Source: a virus (lineage: Duplodnaviria > Caudoviricetes). From it: a stretch of DNA of 57,276 bases. The stretch lies in the IMG/VR virus record IMGVR_UViG_3300025890_000031, positions 1 to 57,276 of that record. One strand, written 5' to 3'. A model generated the notes under the pieces. That model saw only the letters and a program-made list of their open reading frames with translations, did not search any database and was not told the origin of the DNA. This document shows, one piece after another, positions 2,168-33,846 of the stretch; within the stretch, counting starts at the first letter, position 1; each line of letters starts with the position of its first letter. Made by a program: the position numbers and the translations under genes.

Positions 2168-2422
2168 TTATAAAGTTAGTTCGTTAGCTTCAACTTTTAT
2201 TACTGCTCTTCTAAAGGCATCTAGTGAACCTTTAAAGTTAAATTTTTCTTTACAGATTTTAAAAGCTGAACTGTACGGAAATCTTGTCTTAGATTCAGCA
2301 CAATGCTTTGCTAAAGCGTGAACATACTGTTTACCATTGTCATCCATCTCATGTATACGAGATTTTTGTCCAGTATTGCTGAAAGTACTATCTATAAGAG
2401 ATTTAAGTTCATTTTCGTCCAT
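2168..2422 (-). CDS. Hypothetical protein
   Basis: 84-aa ORF with strong GGAGG RBS and upstream extended -10. Confidence 0.7.
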   Translation of the reverse strand: MDENELKSLIDSTFSNTGQKSRIHEMDDNGKQYVHALAKHCAESKTRFPYSSAFKICKEKFNFKGSLDAFRRAVIKVEANELTL

Positions 2423-2448
2423 ATTTCCTCCTTAAATATATTAAGGAC

Positions 2449-2459
2449 ATGATAGCACA
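2449..2459 (-). promoter_or_regulatory. Extended -10 promoter (TGTGCTATCAT)
   Basis: TGnTAnnnT in the intergenic gap upstream of the 2422 start. Confidence 0.45.
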
Positions 2460-2491
2460 TAAAATGCACTTTAAGCTACTTTAGGAATATA

Positions 2492-3751
2492 TTATTTCTT
2501 GCTCATTTTCCAAGTACCGCCCTTTGACTTGTATCTTTTTGCAGCCCATGCGTTTGCGTATGCACTTGGATAAACATCAAACTTAGATTTTGCTTCAGCA
2601 ATAGAAGAAGCCCATAATTTTGGTTTACTTGGAACTGGTTTAGCTTTGTAAACACCTACAACTAATTTTTTCTTCTTTTTTTTCTTCTTATAATTCCAGT
2701 CTGTACTATCTACATGAACATCTCCTGGAGTTAAATCTTTTTTAACATTTTTATAACGCTCTAACATCCTTCTACCTTTAGCAGCTAATTTTGCAGCGTC
2801 TGAACGATTTTTAGGAACAGGTTCGCCCCAAGCATTTGCAGCTAAAGCAAGTCTTGTTGGTTCGCCATTAGGTTTTGTCATAGCACCACTAGGGTTTGTA
2901 TAAAATCTTGTTAAGAAAGAACCTTTTCTTCTCATTTTCTCTGGTGTATTAGCAGCACCTTTGACACCAGGTTTTAAGTTAGCTCCTTCAGTTCTTTTGA
3001 AATGTGCACGACCAGCAGCAGTCAATCCACCTTTAGGATTTTTTAATCTTTTACTGACTTTTTTTTTTGATTGTGCGATAGCGATAGCCATAGCTTGACC
3101 CCTATCAGTTACAAGTTTTCCTTGTGCGTTTTTTAATTTTTTAGCATAAAATTCACGCATAACCATACCAATTTTATCTTTTCCTGCACCTTTACCCACA
3201 GCTTTTTGTGATTCCATGTGAGCTTGATTAAAAGTTTTGCCAGTTAGTATTCTTTTTCTCATATCTTTAATATGATTTGGTGTGTGATGTTTAGAATGTC
3301 TTTTTAATTTCTTTTCATCTTTTTCAGACATACCTTTTCCTACTTCTAGCATATCCATTTCAACTAATTCTCTTTGACCTTTTCCATGAACTGAAAATCC
3401 TGTATAAGAACCGTCTTTAACTTTTTCCCATACAGAGTCATCATCTACTTTAAATCCTATCCACCAACCTGCTGGTATAGAATCAGATTTAGAAACTAAT
3501 CCTAATGCTTCAAGTTTATCTGGTGTAACAACAAAAGATTCAACTACTCTTGCTACATTTTGATTAACGTGCATTTCTGCACCATTACGAGAGTGAAGAA
3601 CGTAATCATAAGCTGATTTTTCTAATTGACCAATGTCGTCAATAAAATCTCCTTGTGAATCAACGTAGACATCACCATCTTCATCTTTGATAATGTTTGC
3701 CCAACCAAATACTAACTTTTGTTCTTGGTCAAATTTTATTACTTCGTTCAT
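2492..3751 (-). CDS. XkdF-like putative prohead serine protease fused to several basic domains
   Basis: N-terminal ~130 aa has XkdF-type motifs (DSQGD, EMH, VVESF, WWIGFKV, YTGFSV). The C-terminus is K/R-rich with DUF6496-, DUF6321- and DUF5872-like segments. Confidence 0.75.
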   Translation of the reverse strand: MNEVIKFDQEQKLVFGWANIIKDEDGDVYVDSQGDFIDDIGQLEKSAYDYVLHSRNGAEMHVNQNVARVVESFVVTPDKLEALGLVSKSDSIPAGWWIGFKVDDDSVWEKVKDGSYTGFSVHGKGQRELVEMDMLEVGKGMSEKDEKKLKRHSKHHTPNHIKDMRKRILTGKTFNQAHMESQKAVGKGAGKDKIGMVMREFYAKKLKNAQGKLVTDRGQAMAIAIAQSKKKVSKRLKNPKGGLTAAGRAHFKRTEGANLKPGVKGAANTPEKMRRKGSFLTRFYTNPSGAMTKPNGEPTRLALAANAWGEPVPKNRSDAAKLAAKGRRMLERYKNVKKDLTPGDVHVDSTDWNYKKKKKKKKLVVGVYKAKPVPSKPKLWASSIAEAKSKFDVYPSAYANAWAAKRYKSKGGTWKMSKK

Positions 3752-7679: not shown

Positions 7680-8966
7680 TCAGTCGTAATCTAAATCGTC
7701 TTGGTCAGCTAATATCAAGTCTTGTGCAATATCCCCTGATATTTCTTCAAACGAACCATTCCCTGGTGTAAATTTACAAAACCAGTTTTTATTATCTTGT
7801 CCGTGTCGGAACTTAGCTAACTTGAATTTAACAACGTGGGGAGATTTCTGTACTAGCGTAACTACACAATCTGCATCCATACCTATGGCATCAGATTGAG
7901 ATAAGTGAATAACTGATGGTGGTTCATTACCACCACCCTCTCTATTCATTTGTGCAGCGGATATGATGGGTATGTCATATCTCTGAGCGATTGCCTTGAT
8001 ATCAGCACTTAACGAAGCAACTGCTCGCCAATCATCTCCCCCAGACTTTAGTAATGTTAAATAATCTATATAAACAACAGTAGGTTTGTGTTCTTGTATT
8101 CTACTAGCCACGACTGCTGGAGATACAGCACCACGACTACCATCAACAACAGTAAAACTACCTTTTATTTTTTTAGGTATGTCTTGTAAGAATTTTTTAT
8201 ATGCTCTGATATCAAAGTTTTCACCTTTCATCAAGTCTAAAGATTTAAAAGTTTCTTTTCCATATTCTGAAGAAAGAAAACTCTGTACCCTAAACCCAAT
8301 TTGTTTTGAAGGTTGTTCTAAAGATACAAAAAGAACTTTTTCTCCTGCTTGTAATGCTGAACAAGCCATACGGATTAAAGTCCATGTCTTACCTTGACCT
8401 AACCTAGCACCTACTACCCAGAAATCTCCACCTGATGCTCCACCAGTTAAATTATCTAAGCTGGGAAAACCTGTAGGTATTCCTGCTAAACCTCGTTTAT
8501 CTTTAGCTGCTATTCTTCTTTCAATATCTGCTAATAAATAATCTCCATCATCTAAAATATTTAAAGTACTAGAACCTGTAGTAACTTTTTTCTGAAGTAA
8601 TAAAATATCTTGATATAAAGAATCTAATAACTTTTCTCCTGTTTCTTTTTCTTTAATATCTTCAAAAGTATTCTTCATTACAGAACTTATTTTAGTTCTT
8701 ACATAGTTATCTTTTACTTCAGAACAAAAATGTTCTAAATCATCTACTTTATATAAAACTACTTCAGGAAAGTTAGTTTTAAAAGCATTAGTACTAGGTA
8801 AAGTTCTATGCTGTATAAAGTATTTTTCTATCCATGAATATTCTTCAGGATAAGATATAAAGTATTCTCTACTTATTCCTTGTTCAGCTATTACTGCGTA
8901 GTCTTTTCTACGAAGCAAAGCAGAAACAAGAAGTATCTCAGGATGTGCTGACATCTTCTGCTCCAA
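7680..8966 (-). CDS. dnaB: DnaB-like replicative helicase
   Basis: GIPTGF, Walker A GARLGQGKT, SLEQ, YIDYL, AAQMNR, AKFRHG. Confidence 0.93.
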   Translation of the reverse strand: MEQKMSAHPEILLVSALLRRKDYAVIAEQGISREYFISYPEEYSWIEKYFIQHRTLPSTNAFKTNFPEVVLYKVDDLEHFCSEVKDNYVRTKISSVMKNTFEDIKEKETGEKLLDSLYQDILLLQKKVTTGSSTLNILDDGDYLLADIERRIAAKDKRGLAGIPTGFPSLDNLTGGASGGDFWVVGARLGQGKTWTLIRMACSALQAGEKVLFVSLEQPSKQIGFRVQSFLSSEYGKETFKSLDLMKGENFDIRAYKKFLQDIPKKIKGSFTVVDGSRGAVSPAVVASRIQEHKPTVVYIDYLTLLKSGGDDWRAVASLSADIKAIAQRYDIPIISAAQMNREGGGNEPPSVIHLSQSDAIGMDADCVVTLVQKSPHVVKFKLAKFRHGQDNKNWFCKFTPGNGSFEEISGDIAQDLILADQDDLDYD

Positions 8967-9089
8967 TCATCTATTTATTTTATTGTCCACAAGCTCTTGT
9001 GATTTTTCTAATCTAATACATCTTAAATTTTATACAAACAATTTCTATATTTTTTTTTTCATAGTATGCTTTCTACTGAAGGAGAGAAT

Positions 9090-9281
9090 TTGGAAAAATA
9101 TAAAGACCTTTTAGAAAGAGTCGGATTTACATTTGCTGAAGCATTTATTGGTGCAGTAGCTGTAGCTCCACTCATTGACTTAAATGCCTCAACTTTACAG
9201 TTGGCAATTATAGCAGGTGCTTCTGCCGCTCTTGTAGTAGTAAAAGAATTTGTTAAGAAAAATATGCCAGCAAAAAGCTAA
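9090..9281 (+). CDS. Holin-like membrane protein (r1t-type)
   Basis: LERxxxTFAEAF start and two TM helices; probable TTG start at 9090 after GAAGGAG RBS. Confidence 0.65.
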   Translation: MEKYKDLLERVGFTFAEAFIGAVAVAPLIDLNASTLQLAIIAGASAALVVVKEFVKKNMPAKS

Positions 9282-9287
9282 AGGTTA

Positions 9288-9364
9288 GGGGTGGATAAGG
9301 TAAGACTTGTTTAGTGTTGCGGGACAGTAGATAAGTAACGAGGGTTCAACTCCCTCCCACTCCA
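9288..9364 (+). ncRNA. Mini-tmRNA-like RNA: tRNA-like domain only, no mRNA-like domain
   Basis: Acceptor stem GGGGTGG/CCACTCC with G3-U wobble and discriminator A; stemless D loop ATAAGGTAAGAC; 13-bp capped hairpin; T arm GAGGG-TTCAACT-CCCTC. Confidence 0.75.
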
Positions 9365-9369
9365 CAGAT

Positions 9370-9717
9370 ATGTACGAATACGAAGGAATAGTAGAAAGAG
9401 TAGTTGACGGTGATACCGTTGACTGTTTATTGGATTTAGGTTTTAACACTTGGAAGAAATCTCGTGTTAGATTAGCAGGTATAGATGCTCCAGAATCCAG
9501 AACAAGAGATTTAGTTGAAAAAGCAAAAGGGTTAGAAGCTAAGAAGTGGCTCATTGACACGATACAAGAAAACAACAACAGGGTTGTGGTCAAATCGTTA
9601 GGAGTTGGTAAGTACGGAAGGTGTTTAGGCATCATCCTACTTCCAACTATGAATGTCAACGACAAAATGGTTGAGTTAGGATATGCAGTAGCTTATGATG
9701 GGAAATCCGCTAGATAA
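9370..9717 (+). CDS. Thermonuclease (SNase-like nuclease)
   Basis: VVDGDT, RLAGIDAPE, KYGR and MVELGYA motifs. Confidence 0.92.
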   Translation: MYEYEGIVERVVDGDTVDCLLDLGFNTWKKSRVRLAGIDAPESRTRDLVEKAKGLEAKKWLIDTIQENNNRVVVKSLGVGKYGRCLGIILLPTMNVNDKMVELGYAVAYDGKSAR

Positions 9718-9889
9718 CGACAAAGAACTACAAGCAGCAGTAGAAAGAACGGTTGCTAGTTTAGAACAACTTCTATCAATGATAGATGATTACTCAAACG
9801 ATAGATATTATCGTTGTTTTACATGTAGAAGAAAACTTTCTCAGCATCCTGGGAAGGTCTTTTGTTTAGAACGAGTGCAGTTCGATTAA
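9695..9889 (+). CDS. Hypothetical protein with CxxC/H/C motif
   Basis: 64-aa ORF overlapping the nuclease stop. Confidence 0.55.
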   Translation: MMGNPLDNDKELQAAVERTVASLEQLLSMIDDYSNDRYYRCFTCRRKLSQHPGKVFCLERVQFD

Positions 9890-20537: not shown

Positions 20538-21968
20538 TTAGCCTTCTATATGCTTTGGAGTTGAACCTGGTTTAAGTGGGTCATACATATCTCCACCTTT
20601 ACCTTCTTTTTTATCATACACAACACCTCTTCTTTTCGCAGCAAAGTTGTCTAAGTATGTTACAGGCATATCAGGTTTTACTCTTTCTTTAACTAAATTT
20701 TGACCTGGGTTTCCACCGTATATTAACAAATGCTCTGGTTGTAAAGCATCTAAAGCTATTTTTGTACAATTAGCTAATACTTGTGTTGATTTTTCTCTTG
20801 TATCACGGTTTGGATTACCTTCTTCAGCGTCTATGTTTTGTAAGCAAATAGCTAAGATTGGTGGATTTTTTGGTATTCCTAACATAGCAATATCCATTGA
20901 TTGTTCATCTGCAAATTGAACACGTGGTATTACCTTCATACCAGTTTCTTGAAACATACGACCTAACCATTGTGCGTTATAGACTGCTTGTAAATGAAAA
21001 GCCTTTGGCTCTGTATAATAAAAAGAGAAGTCTGGTACAACTGCTGTTTTAATTCCAGCAGCTAAGACTTTTTGTATCATGTATCCAGTATGTGTTATAA
21101 AATTAAAAAACTTATCATCATAAGTAAAGAAAGACATAATAGCTCTGTCATACGGCATACCTATTGGTCTTGCTAATCCGTAGTTCCATAGCCAATGTGT
21201 TATACCATCATCAGGTGTAGCATCTCTACCTGCCCAAGTATCTAAGGGTTTTGGTAGTTTTTCTAATAACATATCTCTTCTAAGTTCTGGTATATCCCAT
21301 CTGTTATTTGTTGGTAAGAATAACTTTTCTTCGTCAATCATCATTATGTTATTATCTATTTGTTCGTCTAATTCTTCATTATCATCAAACCCATCCAGGT
21401 CATCTTCATTTTCTGTGCTCAAAATATTATCAGTTGGTAATCCGTCACCAATATCTAGTGTGTCTGGTATAGAAATATCTACACCTTGTGGGTTTGATAA
21501 ACCTTCAACATAAGTATCTAATCCTGCGTTCGTGCTTGTTAAACCTTCAAATGTTTGTGAAAGACTTCTGTCAACAGCATCAACTATTAAGCTAACATCT
21601 TGTTCTGTATAGCCAGTACCAATAGGGTTGCTAACATTTTGCAATAAATTAGCTAATTGACTTGTATCATAAGTTGCTAAATCGTTTGTTCTGTTGTCTG
21701 CTAATACTATTTTTGAAGCTGATTCATCATCTACATCAACAAAAGCTACTGATATAGTTTCCCATCCTAAAGATTTAGCCGCTAACCATGTGTGGTTTCC
21801 TGCTAAAATAGAATTATCTTTTTGGTTAACAACAATAGGTTTATACTGTTTATTTTCGTCTAATGATTCAGCTATAGCTTCTATGCTACCTATTCTGGGA
21901 TTTCCCTTGTATGCTTTTAATGTATCTAGCTTTACATCTTTTATTTCTACAACCCTATTGTTTGACAT
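20538..21968 (-). CDS. ParB/Srx N-terminal domain fused to a DUF4417-like domain
   Basis: NPR...PIVV...ILAGNH...LADNR ParB motif; FFTYDDKF, PDFSFY and GMKVIP DUF4417-like motifs; acidic linker. Confidence 0.75.
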   Translation of the reverse strand: MSNNRVVEIKDVKLDTLKAYKGNPRIGSIEAIAESLDENKQYKPIVVNQKDNSILAGNHTWLAAKSLGWETISVAFVDVDDESASKIVLADNRTNDLATYDTSQLANLLQNVSNPIGTGYTEQDVSLIVDAVDRSLSQTFEGLTSTNAGLDTYVEGLSNPQGVDISIPDTLDIGDGLPTDNILSTENEDDLDGFDDNEELDEQIDNNIMMIDEEKLFLPTNNRWDIPELRRDMLLEKLPKPLDTWAGRDATPDDGITHWLWNYGLARPIGMPYDRAIMSFFTYDDKFFNFITHTGYMIQKVLAAGIKTAVVPDFSFYYTEPKAFHLQAVYNAQWLGRMFQETGMKVIPRVQFADEQSMDIAMLGIPKNPPILAICLQNIDAEEGNPNRDTREKSTQVLANCTKIALDALQPEHLLIYGGNPGQNLVKERVKPDMPVTYLDNFAAKRRGVVYDKKEGKGGDMYDPLKPGSTPKHIEG

Positions 21969-22347
21969 TTTTCTCCTTTGCTTGCAATTCTAATACTTTT
22001 TCATAATTATCTTGTAATAATTTTCTTTCTTGTGGTGTGTAACCACCAAATATACCTTCGTCAGACTTTGTTATTACTGCAAAGTCTAAACATTCCCTTT
22101 GAACTTCACATCCTTTACAAATACTTTTAGCTTCATCTTCTGTGTATAAATATTCTCCATTTACTTTAACTGTTGGGAAGAAAATATTACTATCTCTACC
22201 AACGCAGTTACCATAGTTTTTCCAATCTCCTTCAAGTAATATCTGAATATCATCTATTGTTTTCCAGTTACTTGGCTTTTCTCTTATGAAAGAAGGTTGA
22301 AACTTAGGTATGAGCTTGCCATATTTAAGTTGTTCGTCTTCTTCCAT
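21955..22347 (-). CDS. whiB: WhiB-family transcription factor
   Basis: C...FFP...AKSICKGCEVQREC...GIFGGYTPQER. Confidence 0.92.
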   Translation of the reverse strand: MEEDEQLKYGKLIPKFQPSFIREKPSNWKTIDDIQILLEGDWKNYGNCVGRDSNIFFPTVKVNGEYLYTEDEAKSICKGCEVQRECLDFAVITKSDEGIFGGYTPQERKLLQDNYEKVLELQAKEKNVKQ

Positions 22348-26857: not shown

Positions 26858-29529
26858 GAAAACCTTCCTACACCTAATGACCTTAAAGCCCCAGACCTTC
26901 TTAATTTCTGTGCTGTTCCCTTTAGTGTACCATCTTTTTTATATAAACTAGCACCTGTTAAAGTCCTAGCTGGAACACGACTAATCATGTCGTCAAAATC
27001 TGTAAATGGTGCTTTCTCTACTATGTTCGTAGCAGCAGTCATACCAATCCCATCTATCGATAGTAAGCCTTTTCTAATTCCTTGTTTATCTAGCTTCCAT
27101 AATATTCCTGACTTATTAACATCAGGTGCTAATAACTTTATACCTAGCCTTTGAGCTTCTTTAATATATTCTTTCTCTTTGGGTGTACCAGCAGTTGTTT
27201 CTAACAATGCACCCATATAAAGCAAAGGCATGTGTGTTTTCATATAAGCTGTTTCATACCCTAACTTGCCGTATGCGGTAGCGTGTGCCTTGTTAAACCC
27301 ATAAGCGTGAAAGCCTTGCATCATTTCCCAAACAGCGTCTGCCTGTACTTTATTTAAGCCTTTAGCTAGACATAAGTCATATATCAATCTTCTATTATCA
27401 TCAAAGGTTTTAGTAGAAGCGTCTGAATACCCACCTTTACCATGTTTTACTTTAATAGCTGATAAGAAAGCGTTTAAGTTGTCATCAGGTATACCTAGCA
27501 TTCTAAGTATTTGTAATACTTGTTCTTGATATACAACTAAACCTAAAGTGTCTTTTAATATATCTTCAAACATTTCATGTGGATAATCTACTCGTTCTTT
27601 TTTAAATCTTCTATCCAAAAACTTTTGTGTATATCCTGTATTCATAGTTGATGGTCTATATAAAGCCATAATTAAAATACAATCTTCTAATGAATTAACT
27701 TGCATTTCTCTACAACCTTTCATAGCTGTCCAACCTTCAAACTGAAATATTCCAGACTTATAACCATAAGGAACACCTCTGCGTAAAGCCATAAATGTTT
27801 TTTTATCTGCATAGTTAAAATTTTGATGATAGTCGTCTATTTCTTCTCCTAAATAATCATAAACTCTTTTAACAGTTGATAATGTTCTTAAACCTAACAA
27901 ATCTATTTTTACAAACCCAGAGTTTTCTACATCATCCATAGCCATTTGTGTAACTTGAACACCAGAACTAGGTATAAACATTTTAGGTACAATCTTATGA
28001 AAGTCTTGTCCGTCATGTACAATATATCCTGCTGCGTGAGCAGATGGTGATTTTAGAACTTGTAAATCTGAGAGCTTTTGCAAACCAGTTTGTAAGACTC
28101 TAGGTAAATCATTAACACTTTTTACATTTCCAAACTTTTTCTTAAATTCAGTAGCTGAATGTTTTCTTCTTTGTTTAGCCATGTATTGAACGAATAAAGA
28201 GCCTCTACCAAACTCATCTAGCCCTAACTTACTGTATGTGCCTAGCTGTACTAAGTTATATTGGCTTGATACCCAATCAACTACTTGTTGTCGCTTTGTA
28301 TCTTCCACATCTAAATCTATGTCAGGTGGTTTACTTCTATCCCTAGACATAAATCTAGCAAAATCTAACTTGAATTTTATTGGGTCAGCATTAGTTATTC
28401 CTAGTAAATAACAAACCATTGAGCCGTTAGCCGAACCTCTAGTATTAAAATATATATCATTTGCATTCATATATTCTGTAATACTGTTGATAAGTAAGAA
28501 ATAATCAGACATACTTACATCTTTGATAACATCTAATTCGTATTCTGCCCTTTCGATATAAGTATTTCCTAGCTTCTGTGCTCGTTTTATAACTTTATCT
28601 TTTAGCTCAACATCTGCATTTTCTGACATTGAAGGAACTTGATATTCATAATTATTTAATCTTTCAATATCGATATCGTGGTTGTCTAACATAAATTTAT
28701 TAGCACGTAATGATTTACGCCATACTTCTAATGAAAATTTAGATTTAATGTGTTCTGTAGATGACAAATGATAAGGGTCACCTGGAAAAGAACTATCTGT
28801 TGTATCGTAATACGATATTTCTTTCATTAAGTCATGTGTCTTTTGCTGTCTAGCATTTGTGTAATGACTATCGCTAGTAATAATTGTATCTGTATTAGTT
28901 TTCTCTGCTAATTCTAGTAGCTGTTTCACAATTTCGTCATCTTCTTCTTTACCGTGATGTTGTAATTCAACATAAGTATGTGGATATAATTTTTTTATTC
29001 TATTTAAAATAGCTACAGCAGCATCCATACCTTGATTAAAAATAGTTTGCTGTATAAGACCGAAGAAACAAGCAGTCAAAACTACAACATTTTCAGATGA
29101 ATATTTTTCTAAATCAGACCAGTCTATAAGTGGCTTTCTATAATAATTTTCTCTAGTATGACTTTCATTATTCATAGCTACTAAATCTTCATAGCCTTGG
29201 GTGTTTAAAGCAATTAAAAGTAAGTGATATCGTTTCTTTTTAAGTTCATCATCTTTTTTATCAAAAACAAAGTACGCTTCAATACCTATGAATGGTTTTA
29301 TATTGTTAGCTTTACAACTTTTATATAATTCAAATGCTGAAGATAAAACACCATGTTCAGTTAAAGTTAATGCTGGTTGTTTTTCTTCTACTGCTTTTTC
29401 TACTAATTCTTCTACTGATGTCATTCCATCTAGCCAAGAATATTTACTGTGTGAATGTGTATGAAACCAATCTATATCACGAACAGTTGTTCTTCTTCTC
29501 TTGCTAAAATTTTGCTTGTTCTTATCCAT
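26854..29529 (-). CDS. dnaE: DNA polymerase III alpha subunit (family C)
   Basis: PHP motifs HSHSKYS..DG and SDSHY; RGSANGS; PDIDLD; KIDLLGL; YGFNKAHA. Start uncertain (ORF open to 29598). Confidence 0.95.
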   Translation of the reverse strand: MDKNKQNFSKRRRTTVRDIDWFHTHSHSKYSWLDGMTSVEELVEKAVEEKQPALTLTEHGVLSSAFELYKSCKANNIKPFIGIEAYFVFDKKDDELKKKRYHLLLIALNTQGYEDLVAMNNESHTRENYYRKPLIDWSDLEKYSSENVVVLTACFFGLIQQTIFNQGMDAAVAILNRIKKLYPHTYVELQHHGKEEDDEIVKQLLELAEKTNTDTIITSDSHYTNARQQKTHDLMKEISYYDTTDSSFPGDPYHLSSTEHIKSKFSLEVWRKSLRANKFMLDNHDIDIERLNNYEYQVPSMSENADVELKDKVIKRAQKLGNTYIERAEYELDVIKDVSMSDYFLLINSITEYMNANDIYFNTRGSANGSMVCYLLGITNADPIKFKLDFARFMSRDRSKPPDIDLDVEDTKRQQVVDWVSSQYNLVQLGTYSKLGLDEFGRGSLFVQYMAKQRRKHSATEFKKKFGNVKSVNDLPRVLQTGLQKLSDLQVLKSPSAHAAGYIVHDGQDFHKIVPKMFIPSSGVQVTQMAMDDVENSGFVKIDLLGLRTLSTVKRVYDYLGEEIDDYHQNFNYADKKTFMALRRGVPYGYKSGIFQFEGWTAMKGCREMQVNSLEDCILIMALYRPSTMNTGYTQKFLDRRFKKERVDYPHEMFEDILKDTLGLVVYQEQVLQILRMLGIPDDNLNAFLSAIKVKHGKGGYSDASTKTFDDNRRLIYDLCLAKGLNKVQADAVWEMMQGFHAYGFNKAHATAYGKLGYETAYMKTHMPLLYMGALLETTAGTPKEKEYIKEAQRLGIKLLAPDVNKSGILWKLDKQGIRKGLLSIDGIGMTAATNIVEKAPFTDFDDMISRVPARTLTGASLYKKDGTLKGTAQKLRRSGALRSLGVGRFS

Positions 29530-33152: not shown

Positions 33153-33846
33153 TTCTTGAATAACCAGATTTGAATTTATTAACTACTTTGTAGTGTCCTT
33201 TTCGTATCATTTTTCCTAATTTTTCGTTAATAGGTACAAACTGATAATTAAAACTTTCTCTCTTATAGGGAACTATATAGCATAAAGGTGTACCTTGTTT
33301 GATAAGAATTTCATCATCACTAGAAGTATAAAAAATTTGTACTGACAATTCGTGAAGTTTGTCTGTATGTACAACGCCATAGTTAGCTTCCCAATCTTTA
33401 TTAAAAGTGTATATCATAGGTATGTACCTAAGACTGTAACCTTTAGGTGTAATGCAAAACCAGTTAGTATTAATATTTATTGTTGCTCTGACCCCTGCTC
33501 CTTCAGGTATATAATCTAAAAATTGTTTTGGGTCATGTGTTCTTACTATAAACTCGTCATTAGCAGGATTAATATACAATTCTCCATTATGTATTGCTAG
33601 GTGTATATCGCAAGGTGCTACTAAAACGTACCCCTCTCTAAATACTTCTACAAAACTAGGACAATGTCTAGCTCCTTTATAGTTAGGTATAATCTTAGAT
33701 ACAAAACCGTCTTTGTTTGGTATAGGTAAATCCATAGGCATGTTAGTAAACCACTTTGGTATAAAGTTTTTAGCAGGTTGTGGCTTTGTAAATTCTATTT
33801 CATCATAGCCAGTAGTATCTGTAGTAAATTTTATACTTGCCTTCAT
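33142..33846 (-). CDS. dUTPase-fold-like/DUF6065-like hypothetical protein, paralog 2
   Basis: Shares PQPA..FIP.WF, CP, PKGY and GTPL..IVPYKRE with 31930..32682. Confidence 0.55.
   Translation of the reverse strand: MKASIKFTTDTTGYDEIEFTKPQPAKNFIPKWFTNMPMDLPIPNKDGFVSKIIPNYKGARHCPSFVEVFREGYVLVAPCDIHLAIHNGELYINPANDEFIVRTHDPKQFLDYIPEGAGVRATININTNWFCITPKGYSLRYIPMIYTFNKDWEANYGVVHTDKLHELSVQIFYTSSDDEILIKQGTPLCYIVPYKRESFNYQFVPINEKLGKMIRKGHYKVVNKFKSGYSRNVD

Follow-up and report, generated by a model that had tools for sequence, protein, structure and literature searches.

A candidate tmRNA reduced to its tRNA-like domain in a marine phage genome, with relatives across viral metagenomes

A linear viral record of 57,276 bp from IMG/VR (IMGVR_UViG_3300025890_000031; estimated completeness 81%), referred to here over its full length as the window, carries at positions 9288-9364 of the + strand a small RNA gene of 77 nt, counted up to its discriminator base A73. 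On the basis of its RNAfold structure and covariance-model matches, this element is very probably a homologue of transfer-messenger RNA (tmRNA) that consists of the tRNA-like domain (TLD) only and lacks the coding sequence (CDS) for a proteolysis tag. The best overall explanation is considered to be a phage tmRNA that has been cut down to this domain and competes with the host's own tmRNA for SmpB and for stalled ribosomes, an explanation held with a little more confidence than doubt. The evidence comprises the fold of the element, its scores against RNA family models, covariation across a family of viral relatives, and a conserved alanine identity in the acceptor stem.

Sequence, fold and model scores of the element

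The element opens with the 5' acceptor strand of helix P1, GGGGTGG (9288-9294), which pairs with CCACTCC at 9357-9363 to give an acceptor stem of 7 bp. The 3' acceptor strand together with A73 occupies 9357-9364; G3 (9290) faces U70 (9361) in a G3-U70 wobble pair, and the discriminator is A9364. The 5' strand is followed by a stemless D loop, ATAA-GG-TAA plus the G of GAC (9295-9304), which is single-stranded in the predicted fold and is aligned by Rfam to the D loop of tmRNA. A P2a-like hairpin (9305-9336) comes next, in which 9305-9318 and 9323-9336 form 13 pairs and one G-G mismatch beneath a GCGG loop. An AAC linker (9337-9339; family consensus G-N-A-C) leads from P2a to the T arm, GAGGG-TTCAACT-CCCTC (9340-9356), whose loop, TTCAACT, is of the TTCRANY type. 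A preliminary description of the window had claimed an acceptor, D loop, hairpin, AAC and T arm at 9288-9364, and all of them are present; its statement that CCA is incompletely encoded was also correct.

The hairpin stands where tmRNA normally has its pseudoknots and tag frame. The minimum free energy and centroid structures from RNAfold both correspond to the fold described (-32.1 kcal/mol; z = -3.61), and none of 200 dinucleotide shuffles was as stable as the element. The GC content of the element is 0.49, against approximately 0.30-0.39 in the genome.

The Rfam tmRNA model (RF00023) matched 9288-9367 with a score of 40.0 bits (E = 3.4e-16 on the record) over model positions 1-374. The alignment covers P1, the D loop, the junction, the T arm and 12 P2a model pairs (9304-9336), and the features shared with canonical tmRNA are P1 with G3-U70 and A73, a D loop of the form GG...GAC, a P2a that begins from GAC, the G-N-A-C junction and the T arm. 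Unlike canonical tmRNA, the element is without 303 of the 374 model positions, which are deleted in the alignment and replaced by 9 nt. The mRNA-like domain (resume codon and tag frame ending in a stop) is therefore absent, and the element cannot template a tag; pseudoknots PK1-PK4 are likewise absent, the strands of P2a being separated by the tetraloop only. The Rfam tRNA model (RF00005) gave 23.4 bits, below its cut-off of 29, and the element has neither a D stem nor a 7-nt anticodon loop, the hairpin loop being 4 nt. The mitochondrial tmRNA model (RF02544) produced no match to the element at E values up to 10. With 40 bits for tmRNA, 23.4 for tRNA and no match for mitochondrial tmRNA, the element is, by these scores, nearer to tmRNA than to tRNA. 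This supports the preliminary description, in which the element is read as the tRNA-like domain of a tmRNA that has alanine identity but lacks a tag frame, and a better score as a tRNA was not obtained. Elsewhere in the window, the tRNA model weakly matched 1281-1352 on the - strand (22 bits, cut-off 29) within an exonuclease gene (1089-2156); this match is probably spurious.

Two covariance models of the family described below were also applied. R1, which has the window in its seed, scored the element at 57.5 bits. R2, from whose seed the window and its subfamily were left out, scored it at 50.9 bits (E = 6.4e-09), the seed sequences and the window having the motifs of the search pattern in common. 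The element was the sole match of both models in the 57-kb window. False matches of R1 scored no more than 42 bits and consisted of tRNA-Tyr, tRNA-Ala, ends of true tmRNAs and a piece of Mycobacterium phage Nibb that resembles a phage attachment site (attP).

The form, which the preliminary description did not recognise as a known one, has already been published for a mycobacteriophage. Hudson, Lau and Williams (2014) include 'Mycobacterium phage DS6A (TLD only)' among their tmRNAs (PMC4131195), the tmRNA Website has an entry for it, and the CDS-less form of DS6A is also covered in PMC11915505; the work of Mao et al. (2009) is taken here as cited in those two sources. The R1 match in DS6A (L253) occupies 28478-28557, with gp33 on one side and the Pol III gene on the other. 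Both elements are phage-borne and about 80 nt long, with a P1 containing G3-U70 and followed by A73, a stemless D loop, a short closed P2a and a T arm, and both are without a tag frame and without pseudoknots. The scores of the DS6A and window elements were 43.2 and 40.0 bits with the Rfam tmRNA model, 63.7 and 57.5 with R1, and 66.2 and 50.9 with R2, whose seed contains neither of them; the DS6A element also falls below the Rfam cut-off of 47 bits. Both phages are apparently actinophages, with the element beside replication genes. The window element thus has the size (approximately 60-90 nt) and the architecture (P1, D loop, closed P2a and T arm) of the DS6A type, within a phage genome.

The two differ in detail. 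The window hairpin is a continuous stem of 13 pairs, capped by a GCGG loop and carrying an apical TTGCGGGAC motif, whereas DS6A and most of the family have a stem of 7-9 bp, an A-rich internal loop and a mini-helix of 3-4 bp, CC(G/C)C...GG. The D loop reads GG-TAA-GAC in the window and GG-NNNC-GAC in the DS6A type, and the linker of the window (GTAAC) is one nucleotide longer. DS6A is temperate, whereas the window genome is low-GC and marine with no integrase seen in the window. Judged from its sequence, the element is a new marine low-GC actinophage case of the published DS6A 'TLD only' kind. The DS6A element is unannotated in both the GenBank and the RefSeq records, and DS6A also encodes an RtcB-like RNA ligase.

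A further cultured phage, Streptomyces phage pSt2308, has an unannotated member in a tRNA cluster (L259 1201-1278; record positions 33356-33433) that scored 77.1 bits with R1 and 76.1 with R2. Searches by blastn with short family members were insensitive: the DS6A query returned seven records, two of which (Achromobacter phage JWDelta at 29.6 bits; Tunturiibacter phage Tunturi_5 at 19.2 bits) were unconvincing as members, and the L048 query returned unrelated structural genes only. Full-length phage tmRNAs, such as that of Mycobacterium phage Kumao (407 nt), those of cluster C1 phages and the two-piece forms of marine myophages, keep the tag frame that the window element lacks, and the Kumao tmRNA scored 23-24 bits in R1 and R2 (R2, 23.4). 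A two-piece tmRNA with a riboswitch is reported for the marine myophage Melnitz (PMC9004378). CDS-less tmRNAs of approximately 65-80 nt are described in mitochondria and in two plastids (PMC11915505). Those of jakobid mitochondria (RF02544) and Mallomonadaceae plastids resemble the window element in being reduced to the tRNA-like domain; they descend vertically from organelle tmRNA and serve organelle ribosomes, whereas the window element is viral and must act on host components.

Relatives in viral and cellular genomes

Relatives were collected with a pattern of motifs and spacers (GGGG, N7, GG, N3, GAC, N20-50, T loop, N7, TCCA). In viral contigs the pattern matched 60 loci with 47 distinct sequences, most of which fold to the same architecture, and CCA directly follows A73 in 17 of the 47. 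Ten of the distinct sequences were left out of the model seeds, either for an odd fold, a shifted start or a tRNA call (L017, L020, L028, L039/L063, L041, L047, L058 and L062) or for a shorter hairpin (L014 and L018, both of which have the family architecture and score as members). L028 is a tRNA-Tyr, and L039 was called tRNA-Val by ARAGORN. Seven sequences that were off register in the acceptor stem in MAFFT alignments A1 and A2 were left out of seeds A3 and A5 and realigned with the model.

The R1 model aligned 70 hits, 51 of them distinct. In the resulting alignment (A4), which is fitted to the model and contains related sequences, 96.7% of the cells assigned to pairs were paired, against 70.4% in shuffles, and 202 were double-changed, against 61.6; none of 500 shuffles reached either observed value, and all slid controls fell to 43-62% pairing. 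The T-stem pairs were 99.6% paired, with covariation; P1 pairs 4-7 covaried, as did the basal P2a pairs, which were 90.5% paired. The search pattern imposed G1-G4, GG, GAC, the T loop and TCCA, and it left P1 pairs 4-7, three T-stem pairs and the base of P2a free to vary. Conservation, proposed in the preliminary description as a check, is evident from this family-wide covariation and from the compensatory changes in close relatives that are given below. When 20 other family members were run against all of Rfam, tmRNA was the best match in 18 and 10 reached the cut-off; tRNA was the best match in none, and two had no Rfam match. ARAGORN, applied to 48 loci, made no tmRNA call at 40 of the 44 family-member loci; its four calls were a tRNA or an over-extended tmRNA, and those at L062 were the adjacent tRNAs.

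The C of GAC is invariably where the family hairpin begins, and (N)AC follows its end; in most members the hairpin has the interrupted form noted above for DS6A. A low-GC subgroup, made up of the window, its close relatives, L033 and L044, has the apical motif and the GTAAC linker in common; the continuous stem with a GCGG tetraloop occurs in the window and its close relatives only. The apical motif (9317-9325 in the window) is found in the window clade, L033 and L044 despite their different lower stems, and all of these records carry WhiB.

The G3-U70 pair is an identity element for alanyl-tRNA synthetase (AlaRS). The viral scan was repeated with the 3' side unconstrained and returned 97 stretches with 83 distinct sequences. 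Among the 47 distinct sequences in which all six other acceptor pairs form, G3-U70 was present in 44, G3-C70 in three and A73 in 46. Where five or more of the six form (56 sequences), G-U was present in 48 and CCA was encoded in 19; the remaining 27 have no acceptor stem and were taken as chance matches. A change of U70 to C would strengthen the helix, yet it is rare (3 of 47), which points to selection acting on the wobble pair itself. This conserved alanine identity suggests that charging matters.

The same search pattern was applied to 185,579 bacterial and archaeal species genomes and found 51 loci. Most of these were tRNA-Tyr or ends of true tmRNAs, scoring 42 bits or less, as determined with ARAGORN and R1. 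With R1, four scored at least 75 bits and one scored 55, giving about five clear copies. Two loci of one genome (L109 and L144) scored 47.4 bits with no ARAGORN call, and a third locus (L113; 48.1 bits) lies within a true tmRNA. The family is virus-enriched. SmpB was found in none of 50 element-bearing viral records, including the 12 that are at least 90% complete, and any SmpB partner must therefore be that of the host. How widely the family is spread through viral metagenomes, the conservation of its alanine identity and its recurrent positions in tRNA clusters and capsid operons appear, from the literature searched, to be unpublished.

Genomic setting and probable host

The element lies between two genes of the same strand. 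Upstream is a 71-aa open reading frame (ORF; 9066-9281, +) with two hydrophobic segments, which terminates at a stop codon 6 nt short of the RNA gene; downstream is a gene for a staphylococcal-nuclease-fold endonuclease (9370-9717, +; PF00565, E = 1.1e-14; phrog_452, E = 2.2e-37). The thermonuclease named in the preliminary description is thereby upheld by PF00565 and phrog_452, whereas the label 'holin-like' for the upstream ORF is not: it has two hydrophobic stretches and no Pfam or PHROG match. A DnaB-like helicase gene (7680-8966, -; PF03796), divergently transcribed, served as the synteny anchor. No sigma-70-like site was found just upstream of the element in a promoter scan. A blastn search of 8900-9800 against cultured phages gave no match, and this stretch of the window recurs in marine metagenomes from several studies. 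Within the nuclease gene, contigs from all four runs examined skip 69 nt at 9423-9493, and many unrelated contigs pile on 9464-9571, a conserved nuclease motif that is common to other organisms and is not particular to this phage.

A DnaB relative was present at 34 viral loci, 12 of which have an R1 match. At nine of these (L072-L080), where DnaB is 95% identical, the element is at the same place, upstream of DnaB and on the opposite strand; at L093 and L094 (DnaB identity 46%) it lies approximately 1.1 kb upstream of DnaB. In the nine close relatives the pair G4-C69 is replaced by C4-G69 with G3-U70 retained, and the hairpin shows a T-A to C-G and a T-A to A-T swap with the G-G mismatch and the apical motif unchanged. 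Within the window's own population, one low-depth contig (2.4; run X6) carries 9310 T>C with the compensating change 9331 A>G, and 9330 G>A as well. The nine relatives also have TATAAT 7 nt before G1, and the window does not.

Members of the family occupy varied positions. Some lie inside phage tRNA clusters (L010, L051/L065 and L062) or within approximately 0.25 kb of a phage tRNA gene (L012 and L024). At L031, L036, L046 and L048 the element is between the genes for a prohead protease (Peptidase_S78) and the major capsid protein (Phage_capsid); it starts 6-7 nt after the protease stop at these loci, with coordinates of about 1501-1580 (544-622 in L031). In a related group (L004, L005, L034 and L054) the element is just upstream of a Phage_capsid_3 gene block. 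At L061 and L064 it adjoins genes for repressor-like S24 peptidases. No constant protein partner was seen among 138 flanking proteins from 42 loci. The short (70-nt) member of L014, on a 185-kb phage contig, has a TROVE (Ro60-like) gene and a tRNA-Asn less than 1 kb away (2372-3070).

The window encodes a structural module of siphovirus type (portal, Mu-F-like protein, capsid, tape measure and tail fibres), a replication module (DnaB, primase, Pol III alpha, RecA and an SSB-like protein) and an AAA+/VWA pair. Neither integrase nor SmpB was found among the 60 ORFs scanned in the record, which, being 81% complete, does not cover the whole phage. A WhiB-like regulator is encoded at 21955-22347 (-; PF02467, E = 8.4e-18) and offers a clue to an actinobacterial host; among 14 control genomes the WhiB family matched only Corynebacterium, and WhiB is present in 10 of the 51 element-bearing viral records, the window included. 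Among cultured phages, those of Gordonia have the nearest relatives of Pol III alpha (37-38% identity), and the near relatives of the capsid include those of Arthrobacter phages (45-47%) and of Roseobacter and Pseudomonas phages (approximately 45-46%). Given WhiB and the Gordonia and Arthrobacter phage relatives, the host is probably a low-GC marine actinobacterium. The WhiB-like regulator occurs here in a marine phage of 34% GC, together with RecA, Pol III alpha and a pyrimidine-dimer glycosylase.

Proposed function and rival explanations

If the element is a TLD-only tmRNA, it would be transcribed together with its + strand neighbours and excised in the manner of a tRNA, with RNase P cutting at the 5' end and host enzymes trimming the 3' end and adding CCA. 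Host AlaRS would charge it with alanine via G3-U70 and A73, and host SmpB would bind it. As it has no resume codon or tag frame, it could not tag proteins and would instead compete with host tmRNA, either off the ribosome through titration of SmpB or on the ribosome through entry into stalled ribosomes. The outcome would be less ssrA tagging, and possibly less rescue, in the infected cell. A similar TLD-only molecule is reported to have inhibited trans-translation in E. coli, independently of whether it could be charged (PMC4131195, PMC11915505). Belief and doubt are evenly matched on the proposal that the element itself may act as a competitor or inhibitor of host tmRNA. A role as a decoy for anticodon nucleases, raised in the preliminary description, is unlikely because the element has no anticodon loop.

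Several observations weigh against the identification or against competition as its function. The element falls below the gathering cut-off of RF00023 (40 against 47 bits), so that Rfam at gathering thresholds reported no matches in the window, and ARAGORN called neither a tRNA nor a tmRNA there, leaving the element uncalled. A73 is followed by CAG, so CCA is not encoded. A near-identical copy (L071, 27-103 (-), on the same contig as L008; DnaB identity 100%) matches the window from the upstream ORF through the T arm, beyond which unrelated sequence takes the place of the 3' acceptor strand and the contig ends 37 nt further on; a disrupted variant and a break in the assembly are the two possible readings. 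At 22 of the 34 loci with a DnaB relative, one of them at 90% identity, there was no element within 3 kb, although one (L082) is without upstream sequence. Metatranscriptome contigs offer at most a weak hint of expression: a 1198-nt contig spans 8993-10190 with two differences and a 151-nt contig covers 9266-9372 exactly, but both come from two runs of one study, give no RNA ends or strand, and could reflect DNA carry-over. Finally, the conservation of G3-U70 and A73 stands in tension with the reported charge-independent inhibition, and pure titration of SmpB fails to explain it.

That tension keeps alive a different function for the same molecule, in which the alanyl-charged domain, with host SmpB and EF-Tu, would enter a stalled ribosome, accept the nascent chain and free the ribosome without a degradation tag, a course also proposed for the CDS-less tmRNAs of jakobid mitochondria. 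Phage proteins translated from broken mRNAs would then be spared ssrA-directed proteolysis. Such productive rescue is considered unlikely. The unforced conservation of G3-U70 (44 of 47) and A73 (46 of 47) and the encoded CCA in 19 of 56 argue that charging is selected, rather than SmpB binding alone, and the adjacent gene is that of a nuclease. To our knowledge, there is no termination route for a ribosome that holds a peptidyl-TLD without a reading frame, which counts against productive rescue, and no gene resembling a peptidyl-tRNA hydrolase or release factor was seen among the 138 flanking proteins of the 42 loci or the 60 window ORFs. According to PMC11915505, the organellar CDS-less tmRNAs of mitochondria and plastids are found alongside SmpB and are believed to assist in dealing with incomplete mRNAs; the sole test reported in PMC4131195 and PMC11915505 gave inhibition, not rescue. 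The fold might alternatively serve as an RNA-processing signal, recruiting RNase P and 3' tRNA processing so as to split a polycistronic transcript and leave the nuclease gene with a 5-nt leader, as would suit leaderless translation. The spacing fits this: the upstream stop codon is 6 nt before the element and the next ATG follows A73 by 5 nt in the window, 4 nt in L072-L080 and 1 nt in L033; 13 of 51 distinct elements start 4-7 nt past the stop of the upstream ORF, and several members lie in the gap that separates prohead protease from capsid genes. WhiB points to an actinobacterium as host, a phylum in which leaderless mRNAs are frequent. Tight packing of genes is, however, usual in phage genomes, many members are in tRNA clusters or far from ORFs, and in just 7 of 51 does an ORF begin within the next 10 nt. 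A processing signal would also have no need of a tmRNA-specific D loop and P2a, G3-U70 and A73 across dozens of diverged sequences. As it fails to explain this tmRNA-specific conservation, processing is improbable as the main function and would be a second role at most.

Two further explanations, under which the element would have no function, are both regarded as very improbable. It could be the remnant of an attachment site, in which a piece of host ssrA or tRNA is carried as attP or was acquired by imprecise excision. Phages often integrate in tmRNA genes, with an attP of 30-45 bp in common with the 3' half of the target (PMC10865867), and an integrase lies approximately 1.2 kb from the element in two records that have one sequence (L035 and L056). 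The element, however, is more than a 3' half and includes the 5' acceptor strand, D loop and closing hairpin as well. Its 23-nt 3' end had no exact match in the 185,579 species genomes, and an integrase search of the window record gave no matches. A tyrosine integrase was present in 9 of the 51 element-bearing viral records and absent from 42, and in seven of the nine it was at least 10 kb away. The integration site of DS6A is given as tRNA-Lys-CTT, not tmRNA (PMC10865867). With a complete 5' half, no integrase in the window, no exact match to the 3' end and the DS6A site at tRNA-Lys-CTT, the attP reading was rejected, and with it the possibility, allowed for in the preliminary description, that the element is an attP-like copy of the 3' end of ssrA. 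A piece that does look like an attP core is found in Mycobacterium phage Nibb (L257 1160-1229), where an ssrA-like 3' sequence lies 90 nt upstream of a tyrosine integrase and beside a queuine tRNA-ribosyltransferase gene; in contrast to true family members, it scored just 36-37 bits (37.0 with R2). The other explanation is a decayed tRNA-Ala pseudogene or a chance cluster of hairpins. The silence of ARAGORN, scores below the Rfam tRNA and tmRNA cut-offs, and the broken acceptor stem of L071 would all be compatible with decay or chance, which are opposed by the compensatory changes in close relatives, the family-wide covariation, the stability of the fold (z = -3.61) and its GC content of 0.49 in a genome of approximately 0.34. 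The element also has a conserved syntenic place in nine relatives and is kept in marine metagenomes of several studies.

The retention of G3-U70 in 44 of 47 sequences also allows a bolder form of the TLD-only reading, which is advanced tentatively and is more doubtful than competition with host tmRNA. TLD-only tmRNAs may be a widespread phage device that needs alanylation and does more than take up SmpB, entering stalled ribosomes and capturing the nascent chain, so that phage proteins would escape ssrA tagging or host ribosomes would jam; in the low-GC actinophage lineage, excision of the RNA may in addition give the following gene a near-leaderless mRNA.

Trans-translation is the main bacterial path of ribosome rescue, and a phage RNA that mimics only its entry step would be a natural inhibitor or hijacker of that path. 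DS6A, as the single published case, looked a curiosity; the same form is now seen in a globally sampled marine phage, and one narrow pattern retrieved at least 47 distinct viral sequences, with members in tRNA clusters, in capsid operons and in a cultured Streptomyces phage. Standard annotation misses the family, ARAGORN being mostly silent and the window copy falling below the Rfam cut-off. That charging may matter is a testable refinement of the idea of SmpB titration. Were these RNAs to prove an alanylation-dependent device, they would serve as natural mutants in which the tRNA role of tmRNA is uncoupled from its mRNA role, and would offer a way into the question of why phages interfere with ribosome rescue.

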